Shown: positions 2,957 to 51,720 of the stretch, piece after piece
Layout: each line of letters opens with the position of its first letter
How positions within the stretch are numbered: position 1 is the stretch's first letter
UHGV virus genome: UHGV-0279745
Origin: a virus
Length of the DNA stretch: 64,000 nucleotides
Strand: one strand, 5' to 3'
Program-made: the position numbers and the translations under genes
Notes under the pieces: generated by a model
Database searches by the model: none
Told to the model about the DNA's origin: nothing
The model's input: the letters and a program-made list of their open reading frames with translations, nothing else

Positions 2957-2989
2957 GGGGTGGTAATCCGCCCCTCTATTATTGTATTT
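2957..2989 (+). terminator. rho-independent terminator-like hairpin with T-rich tail
   Basis: ggggtgg-taat-ccgcccc followed by tctattattgtattt. Confidence 0.5.
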
Positions 2990-3007
2990 ACCTAAAGGAG
3001 TATTAAA

Positions 3008-3439: not shown

Positions 3440-3446
3440 TCTCACT

Positions 3447-3500
3447 CCGCTATAGGCTTCGGTCTATAGCGGAATTAATTTTCTTTCCCTTTTCTTTTTT
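3447..3500 (+). terminator. rho-independent terminator
   Basis: ccgctatag-loop-ctatagcgg followed by long T-rich tract. Confidence 0.6.
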
Positions 3501-3605
3501 GTTATTTTGACACTACTTTACTTACCCTCTACTCGACTATTCCTATGCTGGCTGAGGGATGTAAAACGACCTCTTAAACCTTTTTACTTATTGTGAGTTA
3601 ACGCG

Positions 3606-4454: not shown

Positions 4455-4467
4455 GAGGATTACAGTA

Positions 4468-4944: not shown

Positions 4945-4948
4945 CGAC

Positions 4949-4982
4949 AGGGTGGGGTAATCCCACCCTCTTTTCTTTTTTT
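4949..4982 (+). terminator. rho-independent terminator
   Basis: agggtgggg-taat-cccaccct followed by T-run. Confidence 0.65.
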
Positions 4983-5005
4983 GTGTAAAAGAGGAGTTAA
5001 ACAAA

Positions 5006-5596
5006 ATGGCCGAACGTTGGACTAAAGAAGGTATTATTGCTTCGAAAACAGATTTAGAAGGAGGGTACGTAAACGACCCTGACGATAAAGGTGGGGAAAC
5101 CTGTCACGGTGTAACACTAACAACTGCACGCGAATACGGGTATAAAGGGAGAATGAAGGATCTGACCCGTGCGCAGGCGTTTGATATTTACGATCGCGGT
5201 TGGTGGAAGAAACTTAAACTCGATGAGATTTTAGCTATCTCACCCTTACTCGCAGACCGGATGTTTGATTTTGCTATTAACTCTGGCCGCGTTAACTGTG
5301 TGAAATCGTTACAACGTATTCTGAACGTTTTAAATAACGAAGGGAAACTTTACGCAGATATTGACACTGATGGCGGTATGGGACCTAAAACGCTAGGTGC
5401 CCTGAATGCTTATCTGAATTACCGTAAAGACGAGGGGTTAGGCATCTTAATCTTTGCCTTAATCTCACACCAGGTAACTTACTACACAGAAATCTCCGAA
5501 AAGCGTAAGAAGAATGAAAAATTCGCTTACGGTTGGTATGCGCGTGTGTTCAGGGAAATGCCGGATTATGTGGCGAAGGCGGGGTTAGTAAAATGA
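5006..5596 (+). CDS. GH108-like N-acetylmuramidase with peptidoglycan-binding-like C-terminal region
   Basis: EGGYVNDPDDKGGETCHGVT motif typical of glycoside hydrolase family 108; RBS AAGAGGAG. Confidence 0.65.
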   Translation: MAERWTKEGIIASKTDLEGGYVNDPDDKGGETCHGVTLTTAREYGYKGRMKDLTRAQAFDIYDRGWWKKLKLDEILAISPLLADRMFDFAINSGRVNCVKSLQRILNVLNNEGKLYADIDTDGGMGPKTLGALNAYLNYRKDEGLGILIFALISHQVTYYTEISEKRKKNEKFAYGWYARVFREMPDYVAKAGLVK

Positions 5597-5697
5597 ACTG
5601 GTTTGCTAAACTCTTAGCACTATTGTGGAAAGCGTTAACGTCTGGACGGAAACGTAAAGACGAAAAGCGTGGGTACGAATTTTTCTGGTTTCTATAA
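5593..5697 (+). CDS. small cationic amphipathic peptide (34 aa), unannotated in ORF track
   Basis: ATGA start/stop overlap with muramidase gene; MNWFAKLLALLWKALTSGRKRKDEKRGYEFFWFL. Confidence 0.3.
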   Translation: MNWFAKLLALLWKALTSGRKRKDEKRGYEFFWFL

Positions 5698-5712
5698 GGG
5701 AAGGTGTGGGTA

Positions 5713-6378
5713 ATGGAGAAGCTTCAATATAAACGTTTAGACAATAAGTGGTTTGTATTAACGGAGGATTACCATTATCCGTTTACGTTACGTGAAATTT
5801 ATCACGACCACGTACACTTAGACCGTGCGGTTTATTTAACGGGTGTATTGCCTGACACACAACTGTGGTTAACGGCACCGAAAGGGTTCGTTACCGATTT
5901 AGCGTCGATTCCTGAACACCTCCAGGGAATTTTCCATCCTGACGGGCCGTGGGCACCTGCGGCCTGCATTCACGACCTACTCTATCAAAAATGCAGTACG
6001 GAACGTAGCTATCCCATGACACCGGGTGGTAACGTTTCGCGTATTATCGACAAAGAGTTTTCTGACTTAACGTTCCTGCGTATTATGCAGTCGTTAGAAA
6101 TCTCGCCTTATATCTGCCAAACATTTTATAAGGCCGTCGTTGAATTCGGCTGGGATTCCTACGTAGATCCTAATGCAAAGCCATCCTACAACACTAACGC
6201 GTTTCGTACGTTAGATTATAATCGAAACTATTTATTCGTTCGCGAGTTTAAGGAACCTGCAATCCCTGACCACGAACGTATTGATATCACCACAGATCAG
6301 CCCGTTAATGTCAAATACCTGAACATCAAACGTGCTTTTCTGTCTGGGAGGGAAGATGTTTCATCCAAATCCGAGTAA
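5713..6378 (+). CDS. hypothetical protein (221 aa)
   Basis: ATG at 5713 with GGAAGGTG RBS; conserved-looking TDLASIP and AACIHDLLY motifs. Confidence 0.65.
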   Translation: MEKLQYKRLDNKWFVLTEDYHYPFTLREIYHDHVHLDRAVYLTGVLPDTQLWLTAPKGFVTDLASIPEHLQGIFHPDGPWAPAACIHDLLYQKCSTERSYPMTPGGNVSRIIDKEFSDLTFLRIMQSLEISPYICQTFYKAVVEFGWDSYVDPNAKPSYNTNAFRTLDYNRNYLFVREFKEPAIPDHERIDITTDQPVNVKYLNIKRAFLSGREDVSSKSE

Positions 6379-6871
6379 CTTTAAACTCAAAGAGTTAGTA
6401 CCACAGTCTTATATTGCCAAATACGGCGATTCTGCAATTCGGTTTATGAATCCGTTGTTAATGATTTCGCTACAACAGATTCGTAACCGTTTCGGTAGAA
6501 TGGTGATTAACTCGCCTGCTGCGCAACAGCGTGGCCTAAGAACCTTAGACTTTTTCATCAACCAAGAAAAGCCTAAAGGCGGTAACTATAAACAACGTGC
6601 TTTACAACTCTACTCTGATTCGGGGAGTCAGCACAAGTTCGGTAATGCGATTGATGCAACGTTGTTGGACAGTACCGTAAAGCAGGTTCACGACTACATC
6701 GCCGCTAACCCTGATGAGTTTCCGTTCATTCACTTTATTGAATGCGACATCAGTTGGTTACACATCGACGTTCGTAACCAACCTAACATTACTTTCTGGT
6801 CACCAAATCGAGGTACTGTGAAAGTGGTTAAGCAAAAACCAATCGACTGGAGCTCCTTAGTCGAGATTTAA
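6356..6871 (+). CDS. peptidase M15-like (VanY / L-alanyl-D-glutamate peptidase-type) cell-wall hydrolase
   Basis: SQHKFGNAIDA (SxHxxGxAxD) and WLHIDVR motifs; GGGAGGGAAG RBS before internal ATG. Confidence 0.6.
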   Translation: MFHPNPSNFKLKELVPQSYIAKYGDSAIRFMNPLLMISLQQIRNRFGRMVINSPAAQQRGLRTLDFFINQEKPKGGNYKQRALQLYSDSGSQHKFGNAIDATLLDSTVKQVHDYIAANPDEFPFIHFIECDISWLHIDVRNQPNITFWSPNRGTVKVVKQKPIDWSSLVEI

Positions 6872-6955
6872 CTATTTCTAAGGTGTTTATACCTTATTTT
6901 GTATAAAGACGCTTAGAATGCGTTCTACGCACGATTTGACGGTTAAAATGAATAT

Positions 6956-6994
6956 ACCCTACTCCTTATCGGGAGTAGGGTAGTTTTTATTATT
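6956..6994. terminator. bidirectional terminator between convergent genes
   Basis: accctactcc-ttatcg-ggagtagggt followed by tttttattatt. Confidence 0.6.
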
Positions 6995-7469
6995 CCGCAG
7001 GATGGAGCATTGTTCCGGTGTCAGGAGCTACACCTTCTTTACAGTGGAAGAAAGTAATGCCTTTACCATCACCCGTTTTATATTCTAAAGTAGAATACGC
7101 AAACGTTGGTGTTTTTGAAAGTAACCCATTTACACGGTAGTAACGTTGCCCCGTGATAGGATCGATATTTCCATTAACTTTACCTAATAAATCTTTATAA
7201 AGTTGGGGTGACTCAATCTTACCATTTGGCCAAGTGGCTACCCAGTTAGCGCCAGTATCGATCACAGTTACTGAACCTAACATTAGGTTAGTCGAACTAA
7301 CGACAGGTTTGTAATTTACAAAATCCTGCTCTACACCCATACAGGTGTAAATAACCATGTCGTGTGGCTCTACGGGTACAGTTGAGAATTGGCCGTTAGC
7401 GGTGGGTTGTAAAGCACATCCTGCTAATGAAAAAACACCAACCATAGCGATAAGAAAACGTTTTAGCAT
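6990..7469 (-). CDS. putative lipoprotein (159 aa)
   Basis: N-terminus MLKRFLIAMVGVFSLAGC with lipobox LAGC; start taken at internal ATG. Confidence 0.6.
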   Translation of the reverse strand: MLKRFLIAMVGVFSLAGCALQPTANGQFSTVPVEPHDMVIYTCMGVEQDFVNYKPVVSSTNLMLGSVTVIDTGANWVATWPNGKIESPQLYKDLLGKVNGNIDPITGQRYYRVNGLLSKTPTFAYSTLEYKTGDGKGITFFHCKEGVAPDTGTMLHPAE

Positions 7470-7530
7470 GTTTTCACCTTTTATAAAAAAGTTAAAAATA
7501 ATAATTTTACAGACGACCCTTACTGCCATC

Positions 7531-9481: not shown

Positions 9482-10029
9482 TCATCGTCTCCTTTAATCA
9501 ACCCTAATTCGATTAACAGTTCAAAATCGATATGACGGAATCTTGTGTCGAAGTCCGATTCCCAATCGATACGGATACCCTGGCATTCTTCTGGCGTTAG
9601 CTCAGGAAAAATCACGCTATTAAATTTCTCCCGCTCATCGTAAAACCCATCAATCGGTGAGTTCGGGTTACGTGTTGCGAAGATAGTAATGCCGGGGAAG
9701 GACAATGCCAACACAGTGATAGATTCTGCGCTGGGTTCGCTTAAAGAGCGGCGTAGAAACGCAATTTTGTGACGTGGGAAATCCAATACCCGTTCTTCAA
9801 ACCCTGGGTTACGTTTTTCAATTTCCGCGACCGACAGGTCAGTAAGTTCGGTGCAGTACATTGGGATGATTACAGTCACACCGTGACGAATCAGCAAGCG
9901 TTTTACGTCATCGGTGAAATCTTCACCGTTAATCACCACATAACAACCAAATAGCTTACTGTTTTCCAGAAACTTATCCAGAAGTCGAATTCTACGCTTC
10001 GTAATATTGTTGATCAGAATTGGTTTCAT
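9457..10029 (-). CDS. hypothetical protein (190 aa) in rSAM/Cys-peptide operon
   Basis: ORF overlapping both neighbours (translational coupling). Confidence 0.65.
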   Translation of the reverse strand: MKPILINNITKRRIRLLDKFLENSKLFGCYVVINGEDFTDDVKRLLIRHGVTVIIPMYCTELTDLSVAEIEKRNPGFEERVLDFPRHKIAFLRRSLSEPSAESITVLALSFPGITIFATRNPNSPIDGFYDEREKFNSVIFPELTPEECQGIRIDWESDFDTRFRHIDFELLIELGLIKGDDECLLLVKA

Positions 10030-11314
10030 CTTTGGCTTCTCTTAATAATTTTTCCTTTTGGGCACGTTCACGAACACAGCGTGGGCAATAACACATGCTC
10101 GTGTCGTGGAACGCTTTTGCTGACGTCGTACCCATCTTCTGTTTCCAGTATTCCGCCACCATCAGTTTCGCTGTCGTCCAGCCACACTGACGTCGTTCAG
10201 CGTGATACGCTTTACGGTCTTCTAACGTTCCTTCCCCGTTCTCGTAAGAAGCCGCCGCGCAGCTACCACAAGCGTGTTTCATCGGACAACCTAAACAGGT
10301 CTCTGGGTAGTTGGTATATTGCGTTTGAATCTCTTCTAACAATTTACCGTTGTCCAGACTGACGAATTCCCGACCTACCAACTCAAACACCGCAGAACGC
10401 GACGTTACCGTTGACATAAAGCGGTTACAGCCAAAGATCTTACGGTCAAATCCTAAGCACGTCATGTGCGTTAACGTCCCACAGAACGGACGTAAGCGTT
10501 CTGGGTTCAGCCGTACGGTGTCATTATACAGTAACTGGTCACGCCAGTTCGGTTCCCAAATCGTATCGAAATCCAACCCTTCTGGAATGATGTGCGATAA
10601 GATATTACGTGGGTTGGTGTGTAATCCTTTCTCAACCCAGTAATCTATCACATCCATCATCTGTAAAGCGATTGACGTCGCCATGCTACGTGGCATAACG
10701 TCTTCGAAAGTTACGTTTCCAGAAATTGTCCCACCGCCAGTAATGTCAATTAATGACTTCATCCCCGCAGCATAGAACGGCAGCGTTTCTAACGTAAAGG
10801 TTGCTTTTACGCCGAGCTCTGCAATGCCAACCTCTTTTAAGTAGTTATAGCCACGTACTGCGGCTTCGTAAGAACCCTGGCGTGTTGTTGTGAATATACG
10901 ATAACGGTCATGGGATTCAGGTAAGCCGTCAATCGAAACCCCAACCGAAAGTTTGTCTTTCCAACGTTCTACAATCTCACGGTTCAACGGACGATCTAAC
11001 AGCGTTCCGTTCGTGGAGATACTAAACATAAACGGTCGGTTGTGTTCTTTACACAACTGCTCAGCGGTTTCAAACGCAGCCAGCAGCAGTTTAGGTTGCA
11101 TGAACGGTTCACCACCGATAATGTCAATAATAACTTCAACATTCGGTTCGTTTTTATCACGTTCAAAACAGGCGTGTAAGAAATCAACAATATCTGCCGC
11201 TTTGTTGTTACGCGGGTACTTACGTTCGTAACAATACTCGCAGTCCAGGTTACACGAAAGGTTGGTTACGATCTGATACGTTAACTGCTTAGGGAATTCA
11301 TTTACTTGACTCAT
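9992..11314 (-). CDS. radical SAM enzyme with C-terminal SPASM/twitch-like Cys cluster (440 aa)
   Basis: CNLDCEYC (CxxxCxxC) near N-terminus, GGEP motif, C-terminal CLGCPMKHACGSC plus further Cys pairs; GAGGGG RBS. Confidence 0.8.
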   Translation of the reverse strand: MSQVNEFPKQLTYQIVTNLSCNLDCEYCYERKYPRNNKAADIVDFLHACFERDKNEPNVEVIIDIIGGEPFMQPKLLLAAFETAEQLCKEHNRPFMFSISTNGTLLDRPLNREIVERWKDKLSVGVSIDGLPESHDRYRIFTTTRQGSYEAAVRGYNYLKEVGIAELGVKATFTLETLPFYAAGMKSLIDITGGGTISGNVTFEDVMPRSMATSIALQMMDVIDYWVEKGLHTNPRNILSHIIPEGLDFDTIWEPNWRDQLLYNDTVRLNPERLRPFCGTLTHMTCLGFDRKIFGCNRFMSTVTSRSAVFELVGREFVSLDNGKLLEEIQTQYTNYPETCLGCPMKHACGSCAAASYENGEGTLEDRKAYHAERRQCGWTTAKLMVAEYWKQKMGTTSAKAFHDTSMCYCPRCVRERAQKEKLLREAKDETNSDQQYYEA

Positions 11315-12221
11315 TTGCCGCCCCTCTATTACGCCCTGCCATCACCACACGACGAATATATTCGTACGCCTCTACACCGATAGAGAAGGCCAGTTGGTTA
11401 CATCCCGATTCCAGAACGTTAGGTGCATTCTGGAGTTGGTGCTCACCACCGTCTGCATTAATCCAAAGACTTTCGCTGCAAACGTTACACCCTTCTTCAA
11501 ACACTTTACTTACTGTAAAGCCGCATTCACGACTATTTACTACATTCAGTCGTTCAATGTTATCCTGAACCTGATAGTAGCCGTAAATAAAGTTCATGAC
11601 GTGGTCGGGCGATAAAGGTTTTGGCATTTTCGCATCTAAGAGTAACGTCATTGCACGGAAACCGTAATGGTAAATCGCGCTGTGCAGCTGAATAATATCT
11701 TCGTGCCAGCGTTTGTCCCCTAAACGGTCCCGTGTCAGGACACCCCAAGTCTGGACATTATCCAGCTCGTAGATCGTTTCCAGTGCTTCGTAACAGCCTT
11801 CGTCAATAAAGCGCATAAACGGGCGCTCAGACGACTTAAACCCATCGATGCTAACGTAGACATTGTCAAACTGTTTTAGCAACGGGAGATGCGATTTACG
11901 CATCTTTAAGCCATTGGTATACAACTGGTGTTTGAGTTCTGGACGAATCACTTTTAATTCGTCAACAAACGCCTCAATTTTACGGGTTGCCAGTAATGGC
12001 TCACCACCCGTCCACTGAATTTCGGTAATGGTTGGATTAGCTTCCAACGCTTCCAAAATTCGTTCACGTTGAAACTCTCGCGGAGAATCTTCACGATTCA
12101 TGTAATAGGCTCCACCGCAGAAGCTACAATCCAGGTTGCACTTGGACGTAGCGACTACGGACAATACGGTGGGTTTATCGTATAAACGATTCGATAACCT
12201 TGGTTCTGCATTGGTTGTCAT
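11298..12221 (-). CDS. radical SAM enzyme (307 aa)
   Basis: CNLDCSFC (CxxxCxxC), GGEPLL motif, additional C-terminal Cys residues; overlaps downstream gene. Confidence 0.8.
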   Translation of the reverse strand: MTTNAEPRLSNRLYDKPTVLSVVATSKCNLDCSFCGGAYYMNREDSPREFQRERILEALEANPTITEIQWTGGEPLLATRKIEAFVDELKVIRPELKHQLYTNGLKMRKSHLPLLKQFDNVYVSIDGFKSSERPFMRFIDEGCYEALETIYELDNVQTWGVLTRDRLGDKRWHEDIIQLHSAIYHYGFRAMTLLLDAKMPKPLSPDHVMNFIYGYYQVQDNIERLNVVNSRECGFTVSKVFEEGCNVCSESLWINADGGEHQLQNAPNVLESGCNQLAFSIGVEAYEYIRRVVMAGRNRGAANESSK

Positions 12222-12242
12222 TGCAGGTGACTCCGGTCGTTT

Positions 12243-13130
12243 TTAAATATAATCAATGGCGAACAAAGGATCGTCGTCTACGTTAGCACCAGGGGTTAAC
12301 AAGAATGGAGAGTTATACGCTTCCAAAATACGGTTAAGGTCTTTATAACGGACATTTAAACGTTCTAAATCCGCTAACGTTACGTTACGGTCCAACACCG
12401 CCGACACTGCTGCTTTCTCTTCGTCAGTTAACGTGACTTTCGTCATTAAGAAACTAACGAGTTTTGCCAGATCCGCTTCTGTTGACGGATGCTCGCCAAT
12501 ACGCGTTTGAATCAAATGCTGCATCCAAGGCTTACGGATGCGTTTTGTGATTTCGTGTTCATCCGTCAGGGCAACCCACACGGAACGTTCACGATCCCAC
12601 ACGAACTTATAGCTATACGCCATTAAATCCGCTAAGCAATTAATCCCTAACGCTTCGTACCCTTCAATTTCGATATACGATTCCGTATCGAAATAGTTCT
12701 TCGTTTCTGGTGTTACCAGGGTAAAGAAATACGGGAACGAACCTAAGTAATCCGGCGACCACCAACGACGGGCAACCGGTTTTGCGCCCATTTCTTCAAA
12801 TGGGGTAAAGAACAATTCCATATCTACGGAGTTATTCAAAATCCCGTCACTAAAGAAATATTTACCCGCAACCAGTTTACCACGCAACTCGGAGTCACCG
12901 GTAAAGACCACTACACTTTCTGCCGTCAGATCACGAATCTTAAACGTATTTTCTACACGATAGTTTTTACGATCGGTGAAGAAACGTCCGCGCACTTTAG
13001 GCCATTCGCCCGGCAACTGAGTCAACAGACGAACTTCATCTGCTAAGTGTGCACGTACGGAATCAGGGGAAGAAATGTGAAGTGGATGATTGAAAATTGT
13101 TTTGTACGCTAAATGTAAATCATTCTTCAT
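12243..13130 (-). CDS. hypothetical protein (295 aa) in rSAM/Cys-peptide operon
   Basis: ATG at 13130 preceded by GGAG RBS. Confidence 0.65.
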   Translation of the reverse strand: MKNDLHLAYKTIFNHPLHISSPDSVRAHLADEVRLLTQLPGEWPKVRGRFFTDRKNYRVENTFKIRDLTAESVVVFTGDSELRGKLVAGKYFFSDGILNNSVDMELFFTPFEEMGAKPVARRWWSPDYLGSFPYFFTLVTPETKNYFDTESYIEIEGYEALGINCLADLMAYSYKFVWDRERSVWVALTDEHEITKRIRKPWMQHLIQTRIGEHPSTEADLAKLVSFLMTKVTLTDEEKAAVSAVLDRNVTLADLERLNVRYKDLNRILEAYNSPFLLTPGANVDDDPLFAIDYI

Positions 13131-13279
13131 TGATTGCTCCAATTATTTCACGGTCAAACGGACATTCAGGGTATAGAAACCACCGCACCGTTGCCTACCG
13201 ATAACTTGAAACTCAGTAGTAAACCCGTACAATTAACTCAGTTATTGCGTAATAGACATACTACCACTGGAGGGCTTAG

Positions 13280-13486
13280 TTACCTTCCCCCCGCACCTTT
13301 ACTACAGCTACCACTGCACGACCAGCTACATCCGCCGTTACAGTTATAATGGCTTAAAGGTAAACCGGCAAGGTTATTGGTTGAAGACACAGTGCCCTGG
13401 TTTGCAATATAGTTGTTTGCGTTAGCGGTCGTAATATACCCTTCCGCTGTTACTAACCGATCACGAAGGTTCTTAAGGCTAATCAC
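13280..13486 (-). CDS. Cys-rich precursor-like peptide P3 (short, ~68 aa)
   Basis: GTG start after GGGAGG RBS that overlaps P2 stop; leader ISLKNLRDRL, junction HYNCNGGCSWSCSGSCS. Confidence 0.5.
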   Translation of the reverse strand: MISLKNLRDRLVTAEGYITTANANNYIANQGTVSSTNNLAGLPLSHYNCNGGCSWSCSGSCSKGAGGR

Positions 13487-13488
13487 AA

Positions 13489-13740
13489 TTACCTCCCAGA
13501 ACACCCACCAGAACAACTACCTGAGCAGCCTGCAGAACAGTTTCCTACACACGAGTTAGAACAACTCCCCGTACAGCTTCCTGAACAGCCACCAGAACAG
13601 GTATTCGAACATCCACTACAGCCTGCACTACAACCTGATACACAGTTTGCAGAACAGGAAGAACCACAGCCGCCTGATGCGTTCCCTGTACAACCACCAG
13701 AACAGCTCGAACAGGTCCAGCTACAGCTCCCACCACAGTC
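13489..13740 (-). repeat. low-complexity Cys-codon repeat region (P2 core)
   Basis: Reiterated CSGx / CxGx codon units visible in sequence. Confidence 0.6.
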
Positions 13741-13887
13741 ATAGTGGTTGCGAGCTTGCCCACCGAATAAGTCTGCGTTGTTCGTCGCTTTCCCACGAAT
13801 ATAGTTTTGTACTGCACCCGTATTCTTCAATGCAGTGTTGTCAATGTTATTTAGCCGCGCTTGTAGCGCAGGTAATCCAATTGCCAT
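13489..13887 (-). CDS. Cys/Ser/Gly-rich precursor-like peptide P2 (132 aa)
   Basis: AAGAGGTG RBS overlapping P1 stop; ~50-aa leader then ~80-aa core with Cys at about every fourth residue (about 20 Cys). Confidence 0.7.
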   Translation of the reverse strand: MAIGLPALQARLNNIDNTALKNTGAVQNYIRGKATNNADLFGGQARNHYDCGGSCSWTCSSCSGGCTGNASGGCGSSCSANCVSGCSAGCSGCSNTCSGGCSGSCTGSCSNSCVGNCSAGCSGSCSGGCSGR

Positions 13888-13897
13888 TTTTCACCTC

Positions 13898-14150
13898 TTA
13901 GGTTGGGCCAGAACAGCCACCAGAGCAAGCACCAGAACAACCCGTAGAACAACGGCCCGAGCAAGCACCCCCACAGGTCCCACTGCAACCTGAGCAGCCA
14001 CCGGAACACGTTGAACTACATCCAGTACACTGGTTACCGCACGCAGAGGAGCAGCTACCTACACACACTGACGTACAGGTGCCCGAACAACTCGTACAGC
14101 CATGCGTACAACCGTTTGAGCACGTCCAGCTGCAACTCCCCCCGCAGTCT
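13898..14150 (-). repeat. low-complexity Cys-codon repeat region (P1 core)
   Basis: Reiterated CSGx units. Confidence 0.6.
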
Positions 14151-14296
14151 AACCGACTTGGCGTCCAACCCGAAAAAGTGTCGGCGGCATTATGTGCTTT
14201 CGACGCAACTTGCGGATCAACACGTGGGCCAGTTGCCATTTGGTTCTCTACGTTGGTGATTCGGTCACGTACATTTTTAACACTGATCGCCATCAC
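13898..14296 (-). CDS. Cys/Ser/Gly-rich precursor-like peptide P1 (132 aa)
   Basis: AAGGA RBS; leader MAISVKNVRDRI, junction RLDCGGSCSWTCS, CxxxC-repeat core. Confidence 0.7.
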   Translation of the reverse strand: MMAISVKNVRDRITNVENQMATGPRVDPQVASKAHNAADTFSGWTPSRLDCGGSCSWTCSNGCTHGCTSCSGTCTSVCVGSCSSACGNQCTGCSSTCSGGCSGCSGTCGGACSGRCSTGCSGACSGGCSGPT

Positions 14297-32200: not shown

Positions 32201-32260
32201 AATTGATTTCAGATATATATTACTTAAGTGAATAGGGGCTGAACTGGCACTTCAGCCCCT
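32201..32260 (+). promoter_or_regulatory. third copy of the promoter-like core motif (atttcagatatatattactta) followed by 10-bp-stem hairpin (32234-32260)
   Basis: Shares core with the elements at 335 and 36581; hairpin aggggctgaa/ttcagcccct. Confidence 0.45.
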
Positions 32261-35951: not shown

Positions 35952-36530
35952 GTGTACCGATTAATAGAAATGCGAAAAGACGTTTGGTTGGAAAACCTCG
36001 TCGATGGGGAGCTTGAGGGAATAGAGCTTTCCTTACCAGAAAGAGCGGACACGGTATTGGTCTTTCTGATAAAACAGGCAGCGAAGGAACCGGTAGGAAT
36101 CTTCAGCGTGGACTATAAAGACCCACGAGGGATTCATTTACGGAACATTTGCAGTGGTTTGGAAAGCTTACCGGCTAATCCGTTCTTAAACTACGCAAAA
36201 CGTAAACTCCAGCCAGGGCAACATCTCTGGGTAGTTCTAGCGCCTGATACACGCATTATACGTGACGACCTGACTGCGTTTGTCCAAGCAACGAAAGTCA
36301 GTTTGTACAATCCTAATGCGGATCGTACCGATATGCCGTTTACAATCACCTTAGAAGACGATGGAACGCAAGAGGGTATTGAGGCAATTACGGAATTAGT
36401 AAACTCTTATCCGGTAGCGTCTATTGAGTTAGAAAACCCAAACCGATTACCGTTGGGTGATTTACTCGAATGGATTGAGCTGAATACCGAGTTCCTCATT
36501 AACTCCCGGCAGTACCGGTTCGATGTATAA
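35952..36530 (+). CDS. hypothetical protein (192 aa)
   Basis: GTG start with GAGGTGG RBS; terminator downstream. Confidence 0.6.
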   Translation: MYRLIEMRKDVWLENLVDGELEGIELSLPERADTVLVFLIKQAAKEPVGIFSVDYKDPRGIHLRNICSGLESLPANPFLNYAKRKLQPGQHLWVVLAPDTRIIRDDLTAFVQATKVSLYNPNADRTDMPFTITLEDDGTQEGIEAITELVNSYPVASIELENPNRLPLGDLLEWIELNTEFLINSRQYRFDV

Positions 36531-36534
36531 CATC

Positions 36535-36567
36535 GGTGGGGGTAAACCCCCCACCTTTTATTTTTTT
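36535..36567 (+). terminator. rho-independent terminator
   Basis: ggtggggg-taaa-cccccacc followed by T-run. Confidence 0.7.
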
Positions 36568-36580
36568 GTTCGTTAATATT

Positions 36581-36631
36581 AAAAATAATTTCAGATATAT
36601 ATTACCTAGGTGAGAGTACAAAAGCTCTCAC
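36581..36631 (+). promoter_or_regulatory. second copy of promoter-like motif plus gtgagag/ctctcac hairpin
   Basis: About 95 percent identical to 335-410 over ~75 bp. Confidence 0.5.
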
Positions 36632-36660
36632 TTAATAAAACCATTTTAGGAGTATTAAAG

Positions 36661-37032
36661 ATGAAAAACGAATTATTTAAAGACCCGTTTGTTGTATTAA
36701 TGATCGTTACTCGCGCTGCCACTAACCCAGAAAACCTGAAACGTTTACTTACTAACGAAGCATACCTTATCGAACAGCGTGACGCGCAGTTAGCCAAACC
36801 GCACGCTGAAGGCCAGGCGAAAGACCTTATCTCTATTTTCCGTAACGAAGAATGGCGTAAAAACAACGAGCTGTCCGACAACTTGACGGTTGCAATTGCA
36901 AAACTCTTGACACTGTTCAATCTCGACAAAGACATTAACCAAAGCCTTTCTACAGAAGAACGTCTGGAAATGATAAGAGGTATCGGAGATAGTTATACAC
37001 AGATTAAAGCATTCCCCAACACAGTTATTTAA
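36661..37032 (+). CDS. hypothetical protein (123 aa)
   Basis: ATG after conserved leader ttttaggagtattaaag. Confidence 0.7.
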   Translation: MKNELFKDPFVVLMIVTRAATNPENLKRLLTNEAYLIEQRDAQLAKPHAEGQAKDLISIFRNEEWRKNNELSDNLTVAIAKLLTLFNLDKDINQSLSTEERLEMIRGIGDSYTQIKAFPNTVI

Positions 37033-37078
37033 TTTCATAATTTGTGGGAATTTCCCCATAACCCGAAGGAGCATTTCA

Positions 37079-37540
37079 ATGAAAACCTTTATCACATTCT
37101 TAATAACCATTTTAACTTTCGGCCTCAATAGCGCACACGCCGCTATCAACAGCTGGGAACAAATACAAAACCCTGGGCAGGCAGTTTACGAAATCGAGGA
37201 CACCGCCGGAAACGGACTGTCTATCAACTGTGACACAGAAACTGCGAATCGCAAATTTTACGGTCGCATGGTTTGGTATTACGGTGAACCCGTAGGTGCA
37301 ACTAACGCGGAAGATAACACGATGGATATTGTCGTAAACGGCAAAACCTATAACATCCCTACCGTGGACGGTAGTGACAAAGCAGAACACGCTTGGGTTG
37401 CTTTCGTTAAAGCTATCGGTAATGCCAAAACTTTCAGTGTGAGTATCAATGGTAACGATGCCGCTAACTTTACCGTAGAAGGCGAACGTCTGTCTGAAAC
37501 TTTCTTCCAAAACTGTGGACACACCCGTCCTAACAAATAA
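37079..37540 (+). CDS. small secreted protein (153 aa) with Sec signal peptide
   Basis: MKTFITFLITILTFGLNSAHA then AINS; GAAGGAG RBS. Confidence 0.7.
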   Translation: MKTFITFLITILTFGLNSAHAAINSWEQIQNPGQAVYEIEDTAGNGLSINCDTETANRKFYGRMVWYYGEPVGATNAEDNTMDIVVNGKTYNIPTVDGSDKAEHAWVAFVKAIGNAKTFSVSINGNDAANFTVEGERLSETFFQNCGHTRPNK

Positions 37541-37562
37541 CTATTAGTCTTTTTTAGAGTGC

Positions 37563-37955
37563 GTGAAAATGAATATCAGAACTATACTTTATACCATCAT
37601 TATTTTCTGTGCGGTCGGAATTACTGGCACTTATGCTTTCGGTGATTCAGATGTCCGTTATTACGAACCGGCTCCTGACTCACCGATTATCAACCCGGAT
37701 GAGACGCCTACGTTAATGCGCAGTTTCGGTAAACTACAAGTTTATCGTTTAGTGCGTGGTGAAACGTGTACGGGATTACTCATTGCTGACACCCGTGCAC
37801 AAGTCTACCAACGTCTGACGGATATCGCCTGCGAACAACCAAAAGTCATGTCAGTTAGTATCCATCCGCTATCAGTTGGTAACTATACCGCTGTGGACTT
37901 CTTTCACAACGCCGAATTAATCGGACGTGTTACCTTAAATCGCCCTGCTGAATAA
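37563..37955 (+). CDS. small secreted protein (~130 aa) with signal peptide; start uncertain (GTG 37563 or ATG 37569)
   Basis: N-terminal hydrophobic segment TILYTIIIFCAVGITGTYA. Confidence 0.65.
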   Translation: MKMNIRTILYTIIIFCAVGITGTYAFGDSDVRYYEPAPDSPIINPDETPTLMRSFGKLQVYRLVRGETCTGLLIADTRAQVYQRLTDIACEQPKVMSVSIHPLSVGNYTAVDFFHNAELIGRVTLNRPAE

Positions 37956-37973
37956 TCTAAAGGAGTAGTTATA

Positions 37974-38459
37974 ATGAAACGTTTACACACATTGATGTTC
38001 TTTCTGGTTTTCTTGTTTATCGGTGTCACGCCAACTGTAGATGCGGCCTCCGTAGACGAATTGCTTACCTGCGATGGAAACGCTTGGGAAGGTCAGCCAA
38101 ATGCGTGCCCAAACATCAACGACTTGTACGATACCGATAAGTCGTTTAAAGCCGTTGTTGATAAAACATTAGACCCTGTGGGACTGGATGGTATGTTCGG
38201 CTCTAAAGGTTACATGGATGGCCCTGGTGGTAACATGTATCCGGTAAACATCAACAACAAAATCTGGATTGAAAGTGGCGGTTGTAAAGCTAACGCTTGT
38301 GGTTGGGAATACATCGTAACGCTATACAACCCACACACCAAGAAACTCGTCGGCTATTACTACAACATCGACCCCGGTTATCTGATTTGGTTCGGTGATA
38401 TCGGTGTTGCCGAATTCGCTTACCTGGTTAAGAAATACGTAGAACAATCTAAATACTAA
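37974..38459 (+). CDS. small secreted protein (161 aa), 4 Cys
   Basis: MKRLHTLMFFLVFLFIGVTPTVDA signal peptide; AAAGGAG RBS. Confidence 0.7.
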   Translation: MKRLHTLMFFLVFLFIGVTPTVDAASVDELLTCDGNAWEGQPNACPNINDLYDTDKSFKAVVDKTLDPVGLDGMFGSKGYMDGPGGNMYPVNINNKIWIESGGCKANACGWEYIVTLYNPHTKKLVGYYYNIDPGYLIWFGDIGVAEFAYLVKKYVEQSKY

Positions 38460-38470
38460 GGACTTTTATC

Positions 38471-38881
38471 ATGAAAACTATCATCAATACTCTTCTCATT
38501 GCAATGGCTGTTCTGTTCTCTGTCAACGCTACAGCAAAAACAATACAGTTGCCAGACAATATTAAGTACGTCAATAGTACCGATGATTTCTATTGTACGG
38601 AAATTGACGGGTTGTACTGCCAGGCGAAAAGCCTGTTTAAATACAAAGGTAGCAGATACGTATTCATCGTTGAGCAAGGTGGTGCCTGGTGCTACGACAG
38701 CCCAATGTCCGTACTCAACCTCGAAACGTGGAAGGCTCAGCGTCTCGAATACAACGACAAACGTCTGTGCTCTGGTAATAACAAACCATTCTTCGAAGTC
38801 GTAGATGGTGTGCCAATGGTAGGGATATTAGACACTTCGGAAAAACCTATCGTTGTAGCTATGGATAAACTTAAAATTTAA
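38471..38881 (+). CDS. small secreted protein (136 aa), 4 Cys
   Basis: MKTIINTLLIAMAVLFSVNATA signal peptide. Confidence 0.7.
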   Translation: MKTIINTLLIAMAVLFSVNATAKTIQLPDNIKYVNSTDDFYCTEIDGLYCQAKSLFKYKGSRYVFIVEQGGAWCYDSPMSVLNLETWKAQRLEYNDKRLCSGNNKPFFEVVDGVPMVGILDTSEKPIVVAMDKLKI

Positions 38882-38891
38882 GGAGTAACTC

Positions 38892-39281
38892 ATGCGTCTC
38901 GTCTGCGTTTTAGCATTCTTCTTCTCCCTGAGTGTAGCAGCATCTACTCAAGTTAACGATTTACTGCTAACCCCAAACAACAATACCGATTACCAGTACA
39001 ATCCTCCGGGGTTTGAAGTTTGTGAAGTCGGTGAAACAATCTGCCAAGAAGTCGGCGCAGACGGGCGCTATATTCTGGTAAAAGCTGATGGTGGCACAAT
39101 GTGTCCCGCAGGTTATTACTTTCTGCTCGATTCCGTCGCAAGAGAGGTTCTTCCTATCACCACGAAAACGTGCGACCCTACCGTTGTCTTAACTCTCGCT
39201 AAAAGCAAATCTCGCGACCGTTATCTGATCGTTATCGAAGAACGGGGCAAGATGGCTGGTGCTATCGAATTAGATCATTGA
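38892..39281 (+). CDS. small secreted protein (129 aa), 4 Cys
   Basis: MRLVCVLAFFFSLSVAAS signal peptide; AAGGAG RBS; terminator downstream. Confidence 0.7.
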   Translation: MRLVCVLAFFFSLSVAASTQVNDLLLTPNNNTDYQYNPPGFEVCEVGETICQEVGADGRYILVKADGGTMCPAGYYFLLDSVAREVLPITTKTCDPTVVLTLAKSKSRDRYLIVIEERGKMAGAIELDH

Positions 39282-39292
39282 GTGTAGTCTTG

Positions 39293-39318
39293 GCCCCGAT
39301 ACGTTCGGGGTCCTTTTT
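39293..39318 (+). terminator. rho-independent terminator
   Basis: ccccga-loop-tcgggg followed by ctttttac. Confidence 0.55.
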
Positions 39319-39347
39319 ACGACATGTTTACCTAAAGGAGTATTAAA

Positions 39348-39824
39348 ATGCAATTATCTAACGTTTACCAAGCTGCGCAATTTCATCATGACCTGTCGGC
39401 TAAACCTGAACAAATTCGCCACAACTTAACGGTGGCCTGGAAACTGCTGCGTATCGCCGAAGCCTCGCGCCTTAACGATCAGTCGACGATTATCGAAACG
39501 GTGCGCACACTACATCCAGTCGACCTGGAAACAATCTGGACCTTTGATTTAACCCGAATTTATCACCGTCGTTTTAATGCGGCAGTTGATGCGATCCGTC
39601 CTTACTTTCACCACCTGCGGACAACACGCGAAAATGACACTGCACTTGAATGGGTATTGGTACAAAGCGTATGGAGCGACTACATTTATCTCCTTTCTTT
39701 AGAGACGGGTGAATGTATCGTTGCTAACGAAGTTTTTTCAAGTAACGCAGAAATGTATCGTTCCTTCGCGACGATTAAAGGTGAAACACAACCTATTTTA
39801 TCACTCACGCACTTAGGGCTGTAA
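39348..39824 (+). CDS. hypothetical protein (158 aa)
   Basis: Conserved leader tttacctaaaggagtattaaaATG, identical to the one at 3008. Confidence 0.7.
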   Translation: MQLSNVYQAAQFHHDLSAKPEQIRHNLTVAWKLLRIAEASRLNDQSTIIETVRTLHPVDLETIWTFDLTRIYHRRFNAAVDAIRPYFHHLRTTRENDTALEWVLVQSVWSDYIYLLSLETGECIVANEVFSSNAEMYRSFATIKGETQPILSLTHLGL

Positions 39825-39832
39825 TTAGCCCG

Positions 39833-39860
39833 GCCCCGTTTACTCGGGGCTTCTTTTTTT
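39833..39860 (+). terminator. rho-independent terminator
   Basis: gccccg-tttact-cggggc followed by T-run. Confidence 0.65.
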
Positions 39861-39880
39861 GATCTAAAAGGAAAGACCAG

Positions 39881-40489
39881 ATGAACGAAATTACATTAGT
39901 TCGTTTTCTTGAAGCGATGCAAAATGCAGAGCGCTTTTCGCATACGCCTTTATTCATTGACTTAATGGAAGAAGAAGTAGAGGGATTCCTGGCATACCCT
40001 CGCTTACGGGAATATTTTAAACGTAAAACACCGACTGCTTACGAAAAGTTGGTTTACGCGCTTGAGAACAGTACAACATTGTTAACGTCACCTTTTAAGG
40101 CGTTGGAGGCTTTAGACCCGGCTGGTACCACAAGTATCCCACAACGTGTCGTGTTCTACTATATCGACCACGATCGAATCAAAGCCGATGTTGTTAACTG
40201 GATCTCTGAAAACGCAGTTCCTGAAACACGCACTTTTAATCTCTGTCCTGTAGAAGAAGGGTGGAAGGTCGGTAGCCACTATTCTTACCCGTACCAATCC
40301 ATTAAATCGCCGTTTTTATACCCGGTTTATCTGGATGACGTTACACCTGGAAATTGTATCCCGGTAACAAATCTGATCTGTACATTGACGATGGAAGTCT
40401 TAGCCACAAAGGCGGGACAGGTTTGGGTAGAAAACACGAAGAACGTCGATTATTGGACTTCAATGGGTTATCACCTGTACACCAAATAA
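39881..40489 (+). CDS. hypothetical protein (202 aa)
   Basis: AAAGGAAAG RBS. Confidence 0.7.
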   Translation: MNEITLVRFLEAMQNAERFSHTPLFIDLMEEEVEGFLAYPRLREYFKRKTPTAYEKLVYALENSTTLLTSPFKALEALDPAGTTSIPQRVVFYYIDHDRIKADVVNWISENAVPETRTFNLCPVEEGWKVGSHYSYPYQSIKSPFLYPVYLDDVTPGNCIPVTNLICTLTMEVLATKAGQVWVENTKNVDYWTSMGYHLYTK

Positions 40490-44650: not shown

Positions 44651-44737
44651 TGGGTAAAACATATATCGCTATACTTGTCGAGCTATCAATCGGCGGTACA
44701 CGTTTTAATACTACACATCAACTCCGGGCGTTTCGTT

Positions 44738-45235
44738 ATGTTAACGGTACGTAAAGAATCTGAAATTGGTAACGATCTTTTTAATGCGCCCGAAGACTAT
44801 AAAGTCGTTACCATTAATTGCGTAGGAGCGATGGGTCGCGGTATTGCACTCGCGTGTCGTGAACGCTACCCCAACCTTTACCAGGATTATCGTAAGCGGT
44901 GTCGTGAAAACGAAATTAAGATTGGAAACGTTTACGTTTACTCTGACGAAAAGTGTATCTTGCTCCCCACGAAAACCCATTGGCGCTTAAAGTCCCAGGT
45001 TTCTTATGTTACTGCGGGCATTACCGCACTAGCGGATTGTGCTGAGGATCTGGATACCAGCGTTGCTATCCCTCCACTGGGAATGGCAAACGGGTGGTTA
45101 GATTCCTGGGAAAGACAAGAAATCTTTTTGTGGCTTTACAAAAAACTTGAATCAAGGAGACAACACTACACGTTATACTTACCTGATAAGTTGTACCAAG
45201 AAGCAGAGTCATTAATTCCAAACTCTTTTAAATAG
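44738..45235 (+). CDS. macro-domain-like protein (~165 aa); start uncertain
   Basis: VVTINCVGAMGRGIALA resembles the macro-domain VNAAN...GGGVA motif; AIPPLGMANGWL resembles the second macro motif. Confidence 0.55.
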   Translation: MLTVRKESEIGNDLFNAPEDYKVVTINCVGAMGRGIALACRERYPNLYQDYRKRCRENEIKIGNVYVYSDEKCILLPTKTHWRLKSQVSYVTAGITALADCAEDLDTSVAIPPLGMANGWLDSWERQEIFLWLYKKLESRRQHYTLYLPDKLYQEAESLIPNSFK

Positions 45236-45335
45236 ATATTATCATTAGGGCACACAACAAAGGAGTATTAGCTGTCCGCGCCGTCATTTCGTCTTACGGA
45301 ATACGGAAATGTATAAATCCAACTGGAGAAACAAA

Positions 45336-46034
45336 ATGTTTCGTATCTTCTTTCTTTTACTGGTAACACTTTTCGCGTTTAACGCACAGGCGTCAACGTC
45401 AACGCCACATTCTAAGCATCAGCGTGAGTTTGCACAAATCCAACATCGGTTCGAAAAAGTCAGCCCGTTAATTGTGGAAATCTCACGAAAGCAGGGCGTT
45501 GATCCCAAGCTGATGATTACGCTGATTTATCGTGAATCGCGTTTTGATCCCAAGGCTTACAACAAAAGCTCACGAGCACATAGCCTGGTACAAATGCTTC
45601 CAAGTACCAAACGTAATCTGCTAAAGCTTTATGGAAAAGAATTAGGTCTTAGTCAGAACGCCGATTTGTATAATCCGCGCAACGCTGTTTTGCTGGCTAC
45701 CGCGTATGTTAAACATCTTGAGAAGGGGTTAACCAAACGACTCAAACGCAAGCCCACCATGGCTGAAATTGCGTTAGCTTACCACTGGGGTGAAAGTGGC
45801 GCTCACACGCGAATCAAAAGCAAATCTCGAGCAGCACAACGAGAAATGGCAGGCTTTATGAAAGACGCCGCGTTCTATAGCGCGAAAATCGATGTGCCTG
45901 TTGTTGTGGGCTCGGCCCCACGTCAGCTTGCGTTTGCGAAGAAAACACCACGTCAGATTCAACTGGCGGAAGTTAGTAGAATTTGGGATACGATAAACAC
46001 GAGTTTTCCAATCAATAGAGGAGTTACCCTTTGA
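45336..46034 (+). CDS. secreted lytic transglycosylase (SLT-domain) protein
   Basis: Signal peptide MFRIFFLLLVTLFAFNAQA; YRESRFDP, SLVQMLPST and AYHWGESG motifs typical of SLT domain; GGAGAA RBS. Confidence 0.65.
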   Translation: MFRIFFLLLVTLFAFNAQASTSTPHSKHQREFAQIQHRFEKVSPLIVEISRKQGVDPKLMITLIYRESRFDPKAYNKSSRAHSLVQMLPSTKRNLLKLYGKELGLSQNADLYNPRNAVLLATAYVKHLEKGLTKRLKRKPTMAEIALAYHWGESGAHTRIKSKSRAAQREMAGFMKDAAFYSAKIDVPVVVGSAPRQLAFAKKTPRQIQLAEVSRIWDTINTSFPINRGVTL

Positions 46035-50757: not shown

Positions 50758-51261
50758 ATGGGTTCATTTTTTAAAGTGCTTCCGTTCTTCCTTCAGATGT
50801 TAATGGAAGCATTTAAACCAGGAGAAGGAGAAAACGTATCAAGAGCAAGCAAGATAATGACTTTAATCATCACGATCTTGTTGTCGTATTCTGGCTTCGT
50901 CTCCTACGCCTATGTACAACAGTTTCACGCGCTCGTTGCAGTGCAGTCTCATGACACTTATATGTCGCAGTCTTACCAAGAGATGAAACAAGATCGAGAT
51001 AAACTAAAAGAAGATAATGGGAAGTTATACGACAGGCTCTTCGTTTGCCTCGGCCAGAAACCGCCATATGAAAGCACGTTTAATTCATCGAAAGCGAGCG
51101 GTACGGCGAAGGATCTGTCTTCGACAAAACCAGAAACTCCTGTTAATCCAGCTTCAACACCAGAACAACGTAAAGAGGCTTCGGCGAGACCTGTTGGCAA
51201 TTTAAATGCGAACAGTTTTCGACAGGAGATCATAAAGACGCTAACGTCTTCTAAGGAGTGA
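50758..51261 (+). CDS. hypothetical membrane-anchored protein (167 aa)
   Basis: GAGGTGA RBS; N-terminal hydrophobic segments. Confidence 0.65.
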   Translation: MGSFFKVLPFFLQMLMEAFKPGEGENVSRASKIMTLIITILLSYSGFVSYAYVQQFHALVAVQSHDTYMSQSYQEMKQDRDKLKEDNGKLYDRLFVCLGQKPPYESTFNSSKASGTAKDLSSTKPETPVNPASTPEQRKEASARPVGNLNANSFRQEIIKTLTSSKE

Positions 51262-51264
51262 TTG

Positions 51265-51720
51265 ATGAAAATGCTGTTATTCATCATGATGGTGTTCGTG
51301 GGGTTGGTGAGTAATAGCTACGGCGACGAAGTTAAACGTCCAGCTTATAGGCCACTGGAACTTCCTCCTACACCACCAATAATGGTGAATTGGAAAATTG
51401 ACAATAATGCAATGCGTGAGTATGTTGCGGATGTCAACACCTATGCTTACTACGTTTATGTCTACACCCGAAATTTAAACCAACAAGCCGTTAAACGTGG
51501 CTGGAGCCCACCAATGCTGGCTCCACTTTGTGAGCGTTATGAGTTACCGAAGTTACATGTTGTACCTGAACGCTTATCTCTTGACGAAAGCTCTTTAACG
51601 CCCCAGGAGATTAGCCGTGACCTATCGCGTAAACTCAATAATTTGTTGTGGAATTACCGTTCCGACCGTCAGACACTACTCGATTCGTATAACCAATACT
51701 TGACATCGTGTTTGTACTGA
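51265..51720 (+). CDS. secreted protein (~151 aa) with signal peptide
   Basis: AAGGAG RBS before ATG; MKMLLFIMMVFVGLVSNSYG. Confidence 0.65.
   Translation: MKMLLFIMMVFVGLVSNSYGDEVKRPAYRPLELPPTPPIMVNWKIDNNAMREYVADVNTYAYYVYVYTRNLNQQAVKRGWSPPMLAPLCERYELPKLHVVPERLSLDESSLTPQEISRDLSRKLNNLLWNYRSDRQTLLDSYNQYLTSCLY

Follow-up and report, generated by a model that had tools for sequence, protein, structure and literature searches.

A conserved run of five genes for predicted periplasmic proteins, one of them a divergent Ivy-family member, in a relative of jumbo phage SPN3US

The virus genome UHGV-0279745 was analysed over a stretch of 64,000 nucleotides (nt), referred to here as the window. At positions 37079-39281, this 64-kb window contains five adjacent open reading frames (ORFs) on the + strand, g1 to g5, each of which encodes a small protein with a predicted Sec-type signal peptide. 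The genes lie within a compact arrangement that runs, in order, terminator, promoter-like element, hairpin, a gene of 123 amino acids (aa), g1-g5 and terminator, with gaps of 10-46 nt in the run of g1-g5. The features of the locus are as follows.

36535..36555, + strand: strong intrinsic terminator, GGTGGGGG-TAAA-CCCCCCACC followed by a T-run, which ends the upstream gene at 35952-36530
36570..36612, + strand: AT-rich promoter-like element, AATATTAAAAATAATTTCAGATATATATTAC-CTAGGT-G, with its core at 36596-36605
36610..36631, + strand: hairpin in the 5′ untranslated region (5′-UTR), GTGAGAG-N8-CTCTCAC, recognised by sequence inspection only
36661..37032, + strand: leading gene of the unit, which starts at the ATG at 36661 (123 aa), has an AGGAG ribosome-binding site and matches phrog_27024 (unknown function)
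37079-37540, + strand: g1, 153 aa; predicted signal peptide at residues 1-21, mature part of 132 aa with two conserved Cys
37563-37955, + strand: g2, 130 aa from a GTG; predicted signal peptide ending TYA↓F, two Cys in the mature part
37974-38459, + strand: g3, 161 aa; predicted signal peptide at residues 1-24, Cys33-Cys45 and Cys104-Cys109
38283..38300, + strand: C-x4-C loop of g3, CKANAC, counterpart of the inhibitory loop CKPHDC of Ivy
38471-38881, + strand: g4, 136 aa; predicted exported protein with four Cys, orthologue of SPN3US gp182 (phrog_8968)
38892-39281, + strand: g5, 129 aa; predicted exported protein with four Cys, orthologue of SPN3US gp183 (phrog_5248)
39292..39312, + strand: intrinsic terminator, 11 nt past the g5 stop codon, 3′ boundary of the unit

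A sequence-only reading of this DNA had described five consecutive plus-strand genes with Sec-type signal peptides, and all five are present and conform to the usual sequence rules. Their N-termini carry one or two positive charges followed by an uncharged hydrophobic core of approximately 12-16 residues, with a mean Kyte-Doolittle value of 2.8-3.3 over nine residues. The predicted cleavage sites have small residues at positions −3 and −1, namely AHA↓A (g1), TYA↓F (g2), VDA↓A (g3), ATA↓K (g4) and VAA↓S (g5), and these small residues are conserved in the orthologues of seven other phages. By the same heuristic rule, the N-terminus of g3 reads as MKRLH, a 13-residue hydrophobic core and VDA↓A, and is conserved in homologues. 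The mature parts of g1-g5 contain 2, 2, 4, 4 and 4 Cys, respectively, in agreement with the four mature Cys that had been counted in each of the last three genes; the related Cys spacing that had been noted in the last two is 8/24/26 in g4 and 7/20/23 in g5. AAGGAG-type ribosome-binding sites precede four of the five genes, that of g2 being weak. For g2, the ATG at 37569 (128 aa) is a more likely start than the GTG and matches the start called in L024, a close metagenomic relative. The most conserved gene of the block is g5.

The density of such genes was assessed with a home-made rule for signal peptides (positive n-region, hydrophobic core, small −3/−1 residues), which was applied to 75 crude, non-overlapping ORFs of the window. 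Seven were flagged: g1-g5, 50758-51261 and 51262-51720. The count was set by eye to eight, by adding 45309-46034 and a lipobox start inside 6990-7529 and by dropping 50758-51261, which is membrane-protein-like. With eight of the 75 genes so counted, a run of at least five occurs in 2.3e-4 of random orders, and a five-gene run by chance is unlikely. Sec-dependent export of all five products is a well-supported prediction, since it draws on the sequence rules, on their conservation and on the membership of g3 in the Ivy family, which is described below. The Ivy protein of E. coli has been extracted from periplasmic fractions (PMC2267010).

The strong terminator at 36535..36555 constitutes the 5′ boundary of the unit, and L024 has an equal arrangement. 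The 123-aa gene at 36661..37032 is without a signal peptide and is missing from L024. The promoter-like element ends in ...AATAATTTCAGATATATATTAC-CTAGGT-G, and three near-identical repeats of it (...ATTTCAGATATATATTACYTAGGTGA...) are found on the + strand of the window, at 350-359, 32214-32223 and 36596-36605. Both the 350 and the 32214 copy are intergenic and precede genes on the + strand, and those at 350 and 36596 also share a downstream 5′-UTR hairpin and the spacing to the start codon. When 36500-40000 was compared with other phages at the nucleotide level, the only matches were to a stretch of ~60 nt that corresponds to the promoter-like element. In each of eight related phages, the fetched locus contains exactly one perfect copy of the core, TATATATTAC, with 0-2 genes between this copy and the signal-peptide cluster downstream; the SPN3US copy immediately precedes gp180.

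The core in the window is similar to the early consensus that experiments have defined for the virion RNA polymerase of jumbo phage AR9, AAATATATATTAT-(6N)-G (PMC5312081), and because of this resemblance the transcription unit, bounded by the two terminators, is taken to be early. Sigma-70 promoters show no excess in the region, and an Rfam scan of the window returned nothing. A literature search on the motif TATATTAC yielded nothing useful, and the 201phi2-1 transcriptome paper contained no motif text.

Protein matches to g2, g4 and g5 were obtained in 43-59 records of SPN3US-like jumbo phages, at 27-52% identity and with g2 present in 59; the hosts of these phages are Salmonella, Erwinia, Escherichia, Proteus and Cronobacter. 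In SPN3US, the orthologues of g2, g4 and g5 are gp180 (phrog_9424), gp182 and gp183, and the downstream order of gp184, gp185 and the essential, SbcC-like gp186 is shared with the window. By this clear synteny, the window is assigned to a new relative of the Seoulvirus, Erskinevirus and Machinavirus group. Genes with signal peptides stand three in a row in Machinavirus, four in a row in Seoulvirus, Erskinevirus and Wellingtonvirus, and five in a row in the window clade, in which L024 has the same g1-g5. The run is a conserved trait of SPN3US-like phages and not a peculiarity of the window genome, because blocks of three to four such genes are the rule among these phages.

The view that these are not ordinary virion proteins was borne out: the SPN3US homologues gp180-183 do not appear in the virion mass-spectrometry table, which passes from gp173 to gp193 (supplement of PMC5105663), and virion proteins were ruled out as an explanation of the block. 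Spanins and holins were likewise ruled out, as there is no conserved lipobox, no neighbouring lysis gene and, in the predicted g5 and g1 models, no long coiled coil, and the promoter is of the early type. Neither a holin nor an endolysin was found in the unit by ORF list, Pfam or PHROG.

Mature sequences, with the signal peptides removed, were compared with one another by hhalign profile-profile alignment. The gp181 type matched the g4 type at 96.8% (E 2.5e-10) and the g5 type at 94.9% (E 4.5e-8), and g4 matched g5 at 83.5% (E 8e-6). The comparison of g2 with the g5 family gave an E-value of 1.4e-3 at a probability of just 17%, and g1 and g3 were unrelated to the other genes of the block. Tandem duplication of a single gene was ruled out as the origin of all five, as these alignments divide them into three families. 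Correspondingly, g4 and g5 match PHROGs with E 2.8e-33 and E 5.3e-31, respectively, with cross-hits, and both fit the shared four-Cys pattern F-x-C..C..[YF]xLV..GG..C..G..[ND]..C. On these alignments, they are assigned to the SPN3US gp181-183 family (PHROGs 8968/5248), whose members are presumably disulfide-bonded and, judging from the g5 model, all-beta. It is probable that g2 is a distant member of the same family; its cross-hit to PHROG 5248 (E 2e-3) includes the signal peptide in the match.

The structure of g5 was modelled with moderate confidence as an all-beta protein with two propeller-like blades. The g1 model, mostly beta with two helices, is of low confidence and unusable, and neither model contains a long coiled coil. 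A Foldseek search with the g5 model returned a 126-aa Kwan protein (probability 1.0, TM 0.53), which is most likely the g2-type gp200. Searches with g1-g5 gave only sub-threshold noise in Pfam, only a weak Ivy match in NCBIfam, nothing in PADLOC and, in sequence and profile searches of the PDB, nothing significant beyond a sub-threshold, in-register match to Ivy. With no PADLOC match, a known defence system was ruled out. An Ivy-like identity of g4 and g5, based on a similar GG-x-C-x-G strand-loop-strand motif, was also ruled out (hhalign E 0.16-0.25). The gp181-type proteins of Salmonella phages SPFM1, SPFM8 and SPFM12 (P0127-P0129) look like scrambled or permuted versions of SPN3US gp181, which is probably an artefact of assembly or annotation.

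The protein for which a family-based mechanism can be suggested is g3. Against the NCBIfam Ivy model it scores 18.6 bits (E 1.3e-3), compared with a cut-off of 180, and against Pfam it has no match at E≤1. A profile built from g3 together with close homologues found the PDB entries for Ivy, 1GPQ and 1XS0, with E ~0.8 and the two loops in register; in hhalign, g3 and the Ivy protein of E. coli K-12 aligned over 75 columns (E 3.4e-4 to 4.5e-4). The decisive test was a hidden Markov model search of 1.84e9 representative proteins with the g3 profile, which returned 53 matches at E≤1e-3; among the 29 members aligned, 24 match the Pfam family PF08816 (Ivy), the best at E 7.6e-12. These 24 comprise every distant member of the alignment, and g3 and its four closest homologues do not match PF08816. 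Because the g3 profile recovers PF08816 proteins, g3 is placed in the Ivy superfamily (PF08816 / NF007443) by transitive homology.

Ivy blocks lysozyme through a disulfide-clamped loop, CKPHDC, and bacterial lytic transglycosylases are likewise under its control (Clarke 2010, cited in PMC3660660). Both loop Cys are invariant in the 29 family members, and the consensus of the wider family is C-[EKQ]-x-H-[ND]-C-G. Members of the g3 clade have variable loops of the form CK[AST][NHD][AT]C, and close E. coli relatives have CKAHAC, CKANTC and CKSNAC.

A tblastn search of 50,697 deposited phage records with g3 gave no match. Its nearest relatives, at 61-67% identity, are encoded on E. coli chromosomes in a CP4-type island and are annotated as hypothetical. 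The g3 counterpart in L024 (3501-3983) is 65% identical, compared with 90-93% for the flanking genes, and the phage alleles are as distant from each other as from those of the E. coli islands (61-76%). Such divergence between conserved flanks, together with the varying loop, is what a protein tracking variable targets would be expected to show, and suggests rapid diversification or an exchange of alleles between phages and islands.

The PHAGEPACK preprint reported that knock-down of an Ivy-like hypothetical protein of E. coli O121 raises the plating efficiency of T7 (10.1101/2024.04.20.590424). This protein, hypo_04657, has the loop CKANTC, and its model superposes on Ivy 1XS0 at 0.81 Å (10.1101/2024.04.20.590424). 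The same loop is present in the E. coli g3-clade members P0011, P0012, P0015 and P0029, and by this motif hypo_04657 is very probably a member of the g3 clade.

The first gene of the run, g1, is assigned by alignment to the YfjT family, and its product would be exported. Homologues of g1 are already annotated as PF27224, the YfjT family (a name given by context annotation), so that membership was read through the annotation of the homologues and not from a model score of g1 itself. Close homologues are found only in contigs of related jumbo phages. A blastp comparison with E. coli K-12 YfjT gave 24% identity over 133 aa (E 5e-14), and hhalign of the mature regions gave 97.2% (E 3.5e-11). The alignment is colinear, with invariant W5, Y16, N29-C30, P73, G77, A84-W85 and C125, which include both Cys. 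Searches of phage genomes by tblastn produced no match with g1 and no significant match with K-12 YfjS or YfjT, and a literature search found no paper that assigns a function to YfjT or YfjS.

Bacterial homologues of the gp181 type are few, and come from Yersinia rohdei, Hafnia paralvei, Photorhabdus akhurstii and Pantoea ananatis; a genome scan with the gp181-type alignment found three species only. All four loci lie in CP4-57-like islands, in which a YfjP-like GTPase, a YfjR-like regulator, the gp181-type gene, YfjT and YfjQ (DUF932) are followed by anti-restriction, RadC and CbeA/CbtA genes. The order in K-12 is yfjR-ypjK-yfjS-yfjT, with ypjK and yfjS (a lipoprotein gene) filling the gp181-type slot; K-12 YfjS resembles the g5 and g2 families weakly but along its full length (E 1.4e-3 for g5, 2.7e-2 for g2). 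In other E. coli strains, this slot holds a 180-aa signal-peptide protein that shares the same G-C-x-Y-x-L-D motif, followed by the Ivy-like gene. The order in these islands is dynamin-like, YjcZ, patatin, 180-aa signal-peptide protein, Ivy-like and DUF932, continuing with anti-restriction, RadC, DUF987 and CbeA. The families of g1, g3 and the gp181 type recur side by side in CP4-57-type enterobacterial islands. That they are neighbours in such unlike mobile elements is the strongest argument that the three families share a functional theme.

The dynamin-like GTPase, YjcZ and the patatin-like phospholipase form a conserved trio upstream of the E. coli Ivy-like gene (L004-L009, ~650-7000). This trio looks like an uncharacterised defence-type module, and an element of the IS21 family interrupts it in some strains.

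It is tentatively proposed, at a level of confidence slightly short of even, that the g1-g5 block is an early periplasmic shield against incoming peptidoglycan hydrolases, which would confer superinfection exclusion and resistance to lysis from without. Confidence in the anatomy of the block is much higher. The unit would be expressed early in infection by a jumbo phage of the nucleus-forming type, related to SPN3US and phiEaH2. The g1-g5 products would leave the cytoplasm via Sec, shed their signal peptides, form disulfides and act in the periplasm. By analogy with Ivy, g3 may insert its disulfide-clamped CKANAC loop into the active-site cleft of an enzyme of the lysozyme fold or of the lytic-transglycosylase type, and so block it; the likeliest targets would be the peptidoglycan-cutting tail enzymes of phages that attack an already infected cell. 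The YfjT-type g1 and the gp181/YfjS-like g2, g4 and g5 would be further periplasmic binders, inhibitors or partners, and together the products of the operon would flood the periplasm and protect the wall of the infected cell through the long jumbo-phage cycle. T4 provides a precedent in Spackle, which is made early, acts in the periplasm and excludes incoming phages by inhibiting their tail lysozyme, gp5 (PMC7677548).

The analysis establishes the genes, their signal-peptide features and family memberships, the layout of the operon, the synteny and the co-occurrence in islands; export, early timing, the identity of the targets and the activities of g1, g2, g4 and g5 are all presumed in this proposal. 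Family membership suggests a mechanism for g3 only, and the roles of the other four genes are drawn from context: they may share a protective role because two kinds of mobile element, unrelated to each other, both carry the three families as neighbours. The sequence-only reading had put forward several functions at the envelope. An envelope location fits the cleavable-type N-termini, the missing virion role and the Ivy-family membership of g3, and receptor masking gained no support. Similarly, superinfection exclusion, inhibition of periplasmic enzymes and protection of peptidoglycan fit what is found for g3, and extend to the other genes by context only.

Several points weigh against the proposed shield. 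An Ivy-like gene is missing in most relatives (SPN3US, phiEaH2 and Machinavirus), so hydrolase inhibition cannot be assumed for the core genes g2, g4 and g5. The g5 model resembles propeller blades and no known lysozyme inhibitor. For g3 itself, the score lies below the Pfam and NCBIfam thresholds for Ivy, and its loop keeps the Lys and has Asn in place of the active-site-directed His of Ivy. The T7 phenotype is linked to the g3 clade by the loop motif of hypo_04657 alone, and since T7 lysozyme is an amidase, the effect of the knock-down may have another cause. Finally, the protective role is deduced from gene content and sequence.

The window encodes two peptidoglycan hydrolases. The first, at 45309-46034 (+), is 241 aa long; its signal peptide is strongly hydrophobic and of the cleavable type (…FAFNAQA↓STS), and Pfam assigns it an SLT lytic-transglycosylase domain (8.8e-15). 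Its homologues, annotated as 'putative endolysin' or 'transglycosylase', occur in 140 jumbo-phage records. The second, at 5006-5596 (+), has GH108 and PG_binding_3 domains in an endolysin-type architecture and no signal peptide. As a Sec-exported enzyme of the endolysin type needs restraint, the SLT protein is a candidate partner of the periplasmic proteins.

The main rival to the shield, though judged unlikely, is that g1-g5 control the phage's own lysis, acting as anti-lysins or lysis-inhibition factors that restrain the exported SLT enzyme at 45309-46034, or host autolysins, until lysis. The conservation of a Sec-signal SLT enzyme across the 140 records suits this explanation, as does the co-occurrence of the core g2/g4/g5 with the SLT gene across SPN3US-like phages, and Ivy is reported to inhibit bacterial lytic transglycosylases (PMC3660660). 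It fits less well with the early-type promoter and with the position of the SLT gene, 6 kb off in a separate unit. Furthermore, relatives with the same SLT enzyme have no Ivy-like gene, and homologous families also occur in CP4-57-type islands, which encode no endolysin.

Takeover or exclusion at the envelope by non-enzymatic means, with g3 as the only inhibitor, is quite doubtful. Receptor masking or modification, blocked DNA passage, and remodelling of Tol-Pal or of the outer membrane would all fall under this explanation, and many known exclusion proteins act non-enzymatically. The modelled g5 fold, with its two propeller-like blades, suggests a protein-binding scaffold and not a known inhibitor, and the known lysozyme-inhibitor families PliC/MliC, PliI and PliG match none of g1, g2, g4 and g5. 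Against it, no positive evidence of a receptor or partner was found, and the tight, repeated linkage with the Ivy-like gene argues for a shared theme.

Mobile elements are known to carry arrays of small immunity proteins, either exported or lipoproteins, which raises the alternative that the block confers immunity to attack by agents other than phages: type VI amidase or muramidase effectors, bacteriocins of the colicin or pesticin type, or animal lysozyme. The host would thereby be kept alive through the long latent period. The original description of Ivy was that of a vertebrate-lysozyme inhibitor (PMC3660660, PMC2267010), and Salmonella is without a chromosomal ivy gene (PMC2267010). This alternative is nonetheless improbable: the sole recorded phenotype of an Ivy-like relative, itself placed in the g3 clade by loop motif alone, is a phage phenotype, and there is no effector gene nearby and no match in PADLOC or elsewhere. 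Least credible by far is that the hydrophobic N-termini are uncleaved membrane anchors of lysis or structural parts (spanin-, antiholin- or virion-type), for although SPN3US gp180 carries a lipobox-like LAAC motif, the Cys in the hydrophobic region of the g2 type is not conserved, the hydrophobic cores span just 12-16 residues and lead into conserved sites of the AXA type, no long coiled coil is predicted in either the all-beta g5 model or the low-confidence g1 model (mostly beta, two helices), gp180-183 are missing from the SPN3US virion proteome, the promoter is early-type, and E. coli Ivy, of the family of g3, is a soluble periplasmic protein (PMC2267010).

A bolder form of the shield proposal, which is itself unlikely, is that the three families constitute a hitherto unrecognised mobile 'periplasmic anti-lysin kit', each of them countering a different class of wall-breaching enzyme of invading phages. 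With similarly low confidence, the kit would be expressed first by whichever element enters, either from the early operon of an SPN3US-like phage or from a CP4-57-type island beside anti-restriction and DUF932 genes. If true, this would provide a function for the E. coli y-ome genes yfjS and yfjT, and a new fold class of peptidoglycan-hydrolase inhibitors, a disulfide-locked, two-blade propeller-like unit.

The families themselves had been catalogued before, either in PHROGs labelled 'hypothetical' or in a Pfam entry of recent date, and the principle of exclusion is known from T4. What appears to be new is the Ivy-family gene in a lytic jumbo phage, the block as a conserved early operon, and the linkage of three families with CP4-57-type islands, through which yfjS and yfjT become accessible to experiment. 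To our knowledge, periplasmic superinfection exclusion is understood at the molecular level for very few phages, with T4 Spackle as the main case. The locus could lead to the functions of YfjT and YfjS and to the means by which long-latency jumbo phages guard the host wall, and it bears on whether phages and islands swap anti-lysin alleles. For phage cocktails, such genes would render an infected cell refractory to other phages.

Elsewhere in the window, a macro-domain protein (Pfam 3e-6; PHROG 'phosphatase') is encoded at 44675-45235 (+), in a separate unit ~5 kb downstream of the operon. A membrane protein at 50758-51261 (+) is followed by a 152-aa signal-peptide protein at 51262-51720, both in PHROGs of unknown function, and the ORF at 6990-7529 (−), also in a PHROG of unknown function, has an internal start, MLKRFLIAMVGVFSLAGC, with a lipobox. 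The genes at 50758-51720 and 6990-7529 may be spanin-like or lysis components. At 9992-14296 (−), two adjacent radical-SAM proteins (9992-11314, Pfam 3e-15; 11298-12221, 6e-14) adjoin two paralogous 132-aa ORFs, 13489-13887 and 13898-14296, with 20 and 21 Cys. This set could be a module for peptide modification or metal clusters within a block of large minus-strand ORFs.

Among known systems, E. coli Ivy (YkfE, PF08816, PDB 1GPQ/1XS0) is the closest counterpart of g3. The two are alike in their Sec signal peptide and in size, and their sequences can be aligned in register on either side of the C-x4-C loop that the disulfide clamps (..CKxxxCG..). The g3 loop reads CKANAC and that of Ivy CKPHDC, with His replaced by Asn and Pro by Ala; g3 also has a predicted extra N-terminal disulfide, C33-C45, and the loop is variable in its clade. 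Furthermore, the g3 clade is found in lytic jumbo phage and CP4-type islands and not at the chromosomal ivy locus. PliC/MliC, PliI and PliG resemble the block proteins as small exported or lipoprotein, beta-rich, disulfide-containing proteins of the periplasm. T4 Spackle (gp61.3) would be comparable in principle only, as an early, Sec-exported small inhibitor of a tail hydrolase (PMC7677548); it is one protein, whereas five from three families are encoded here, and its fold is presumably unrelated to that of Ivy. Comparisons of g1-g5 with Pfam and PHROG, which did not include a direct comparison with Spackle, gave no family beyond those named above.

In the CP4-57 element of K-12, YfjT has a clear homologue in g1. 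The gp181-type relatives of g4 and g5 occupy the position of yfjS, between yfjR and yfjT, in four islands; YfjS is a lipoprotein with two mature Cys, unlike the four-Cys g4 and g5, and its homology to g2, g4 and g5 is not established. The nearest system as a whole is the gp180-gp183 block of SPN3US and its equivalent in phiEaH2, gp104-107 (PHROGs 9424, 8968 and 5248), which has the same position and promoter element and contains the orthologues of g2, g4 and g5. Identities to the window proteins are only 30-51%, and the window swaps the gp181-type gene for g3 and adds g1 and the 123-aa leader gene.

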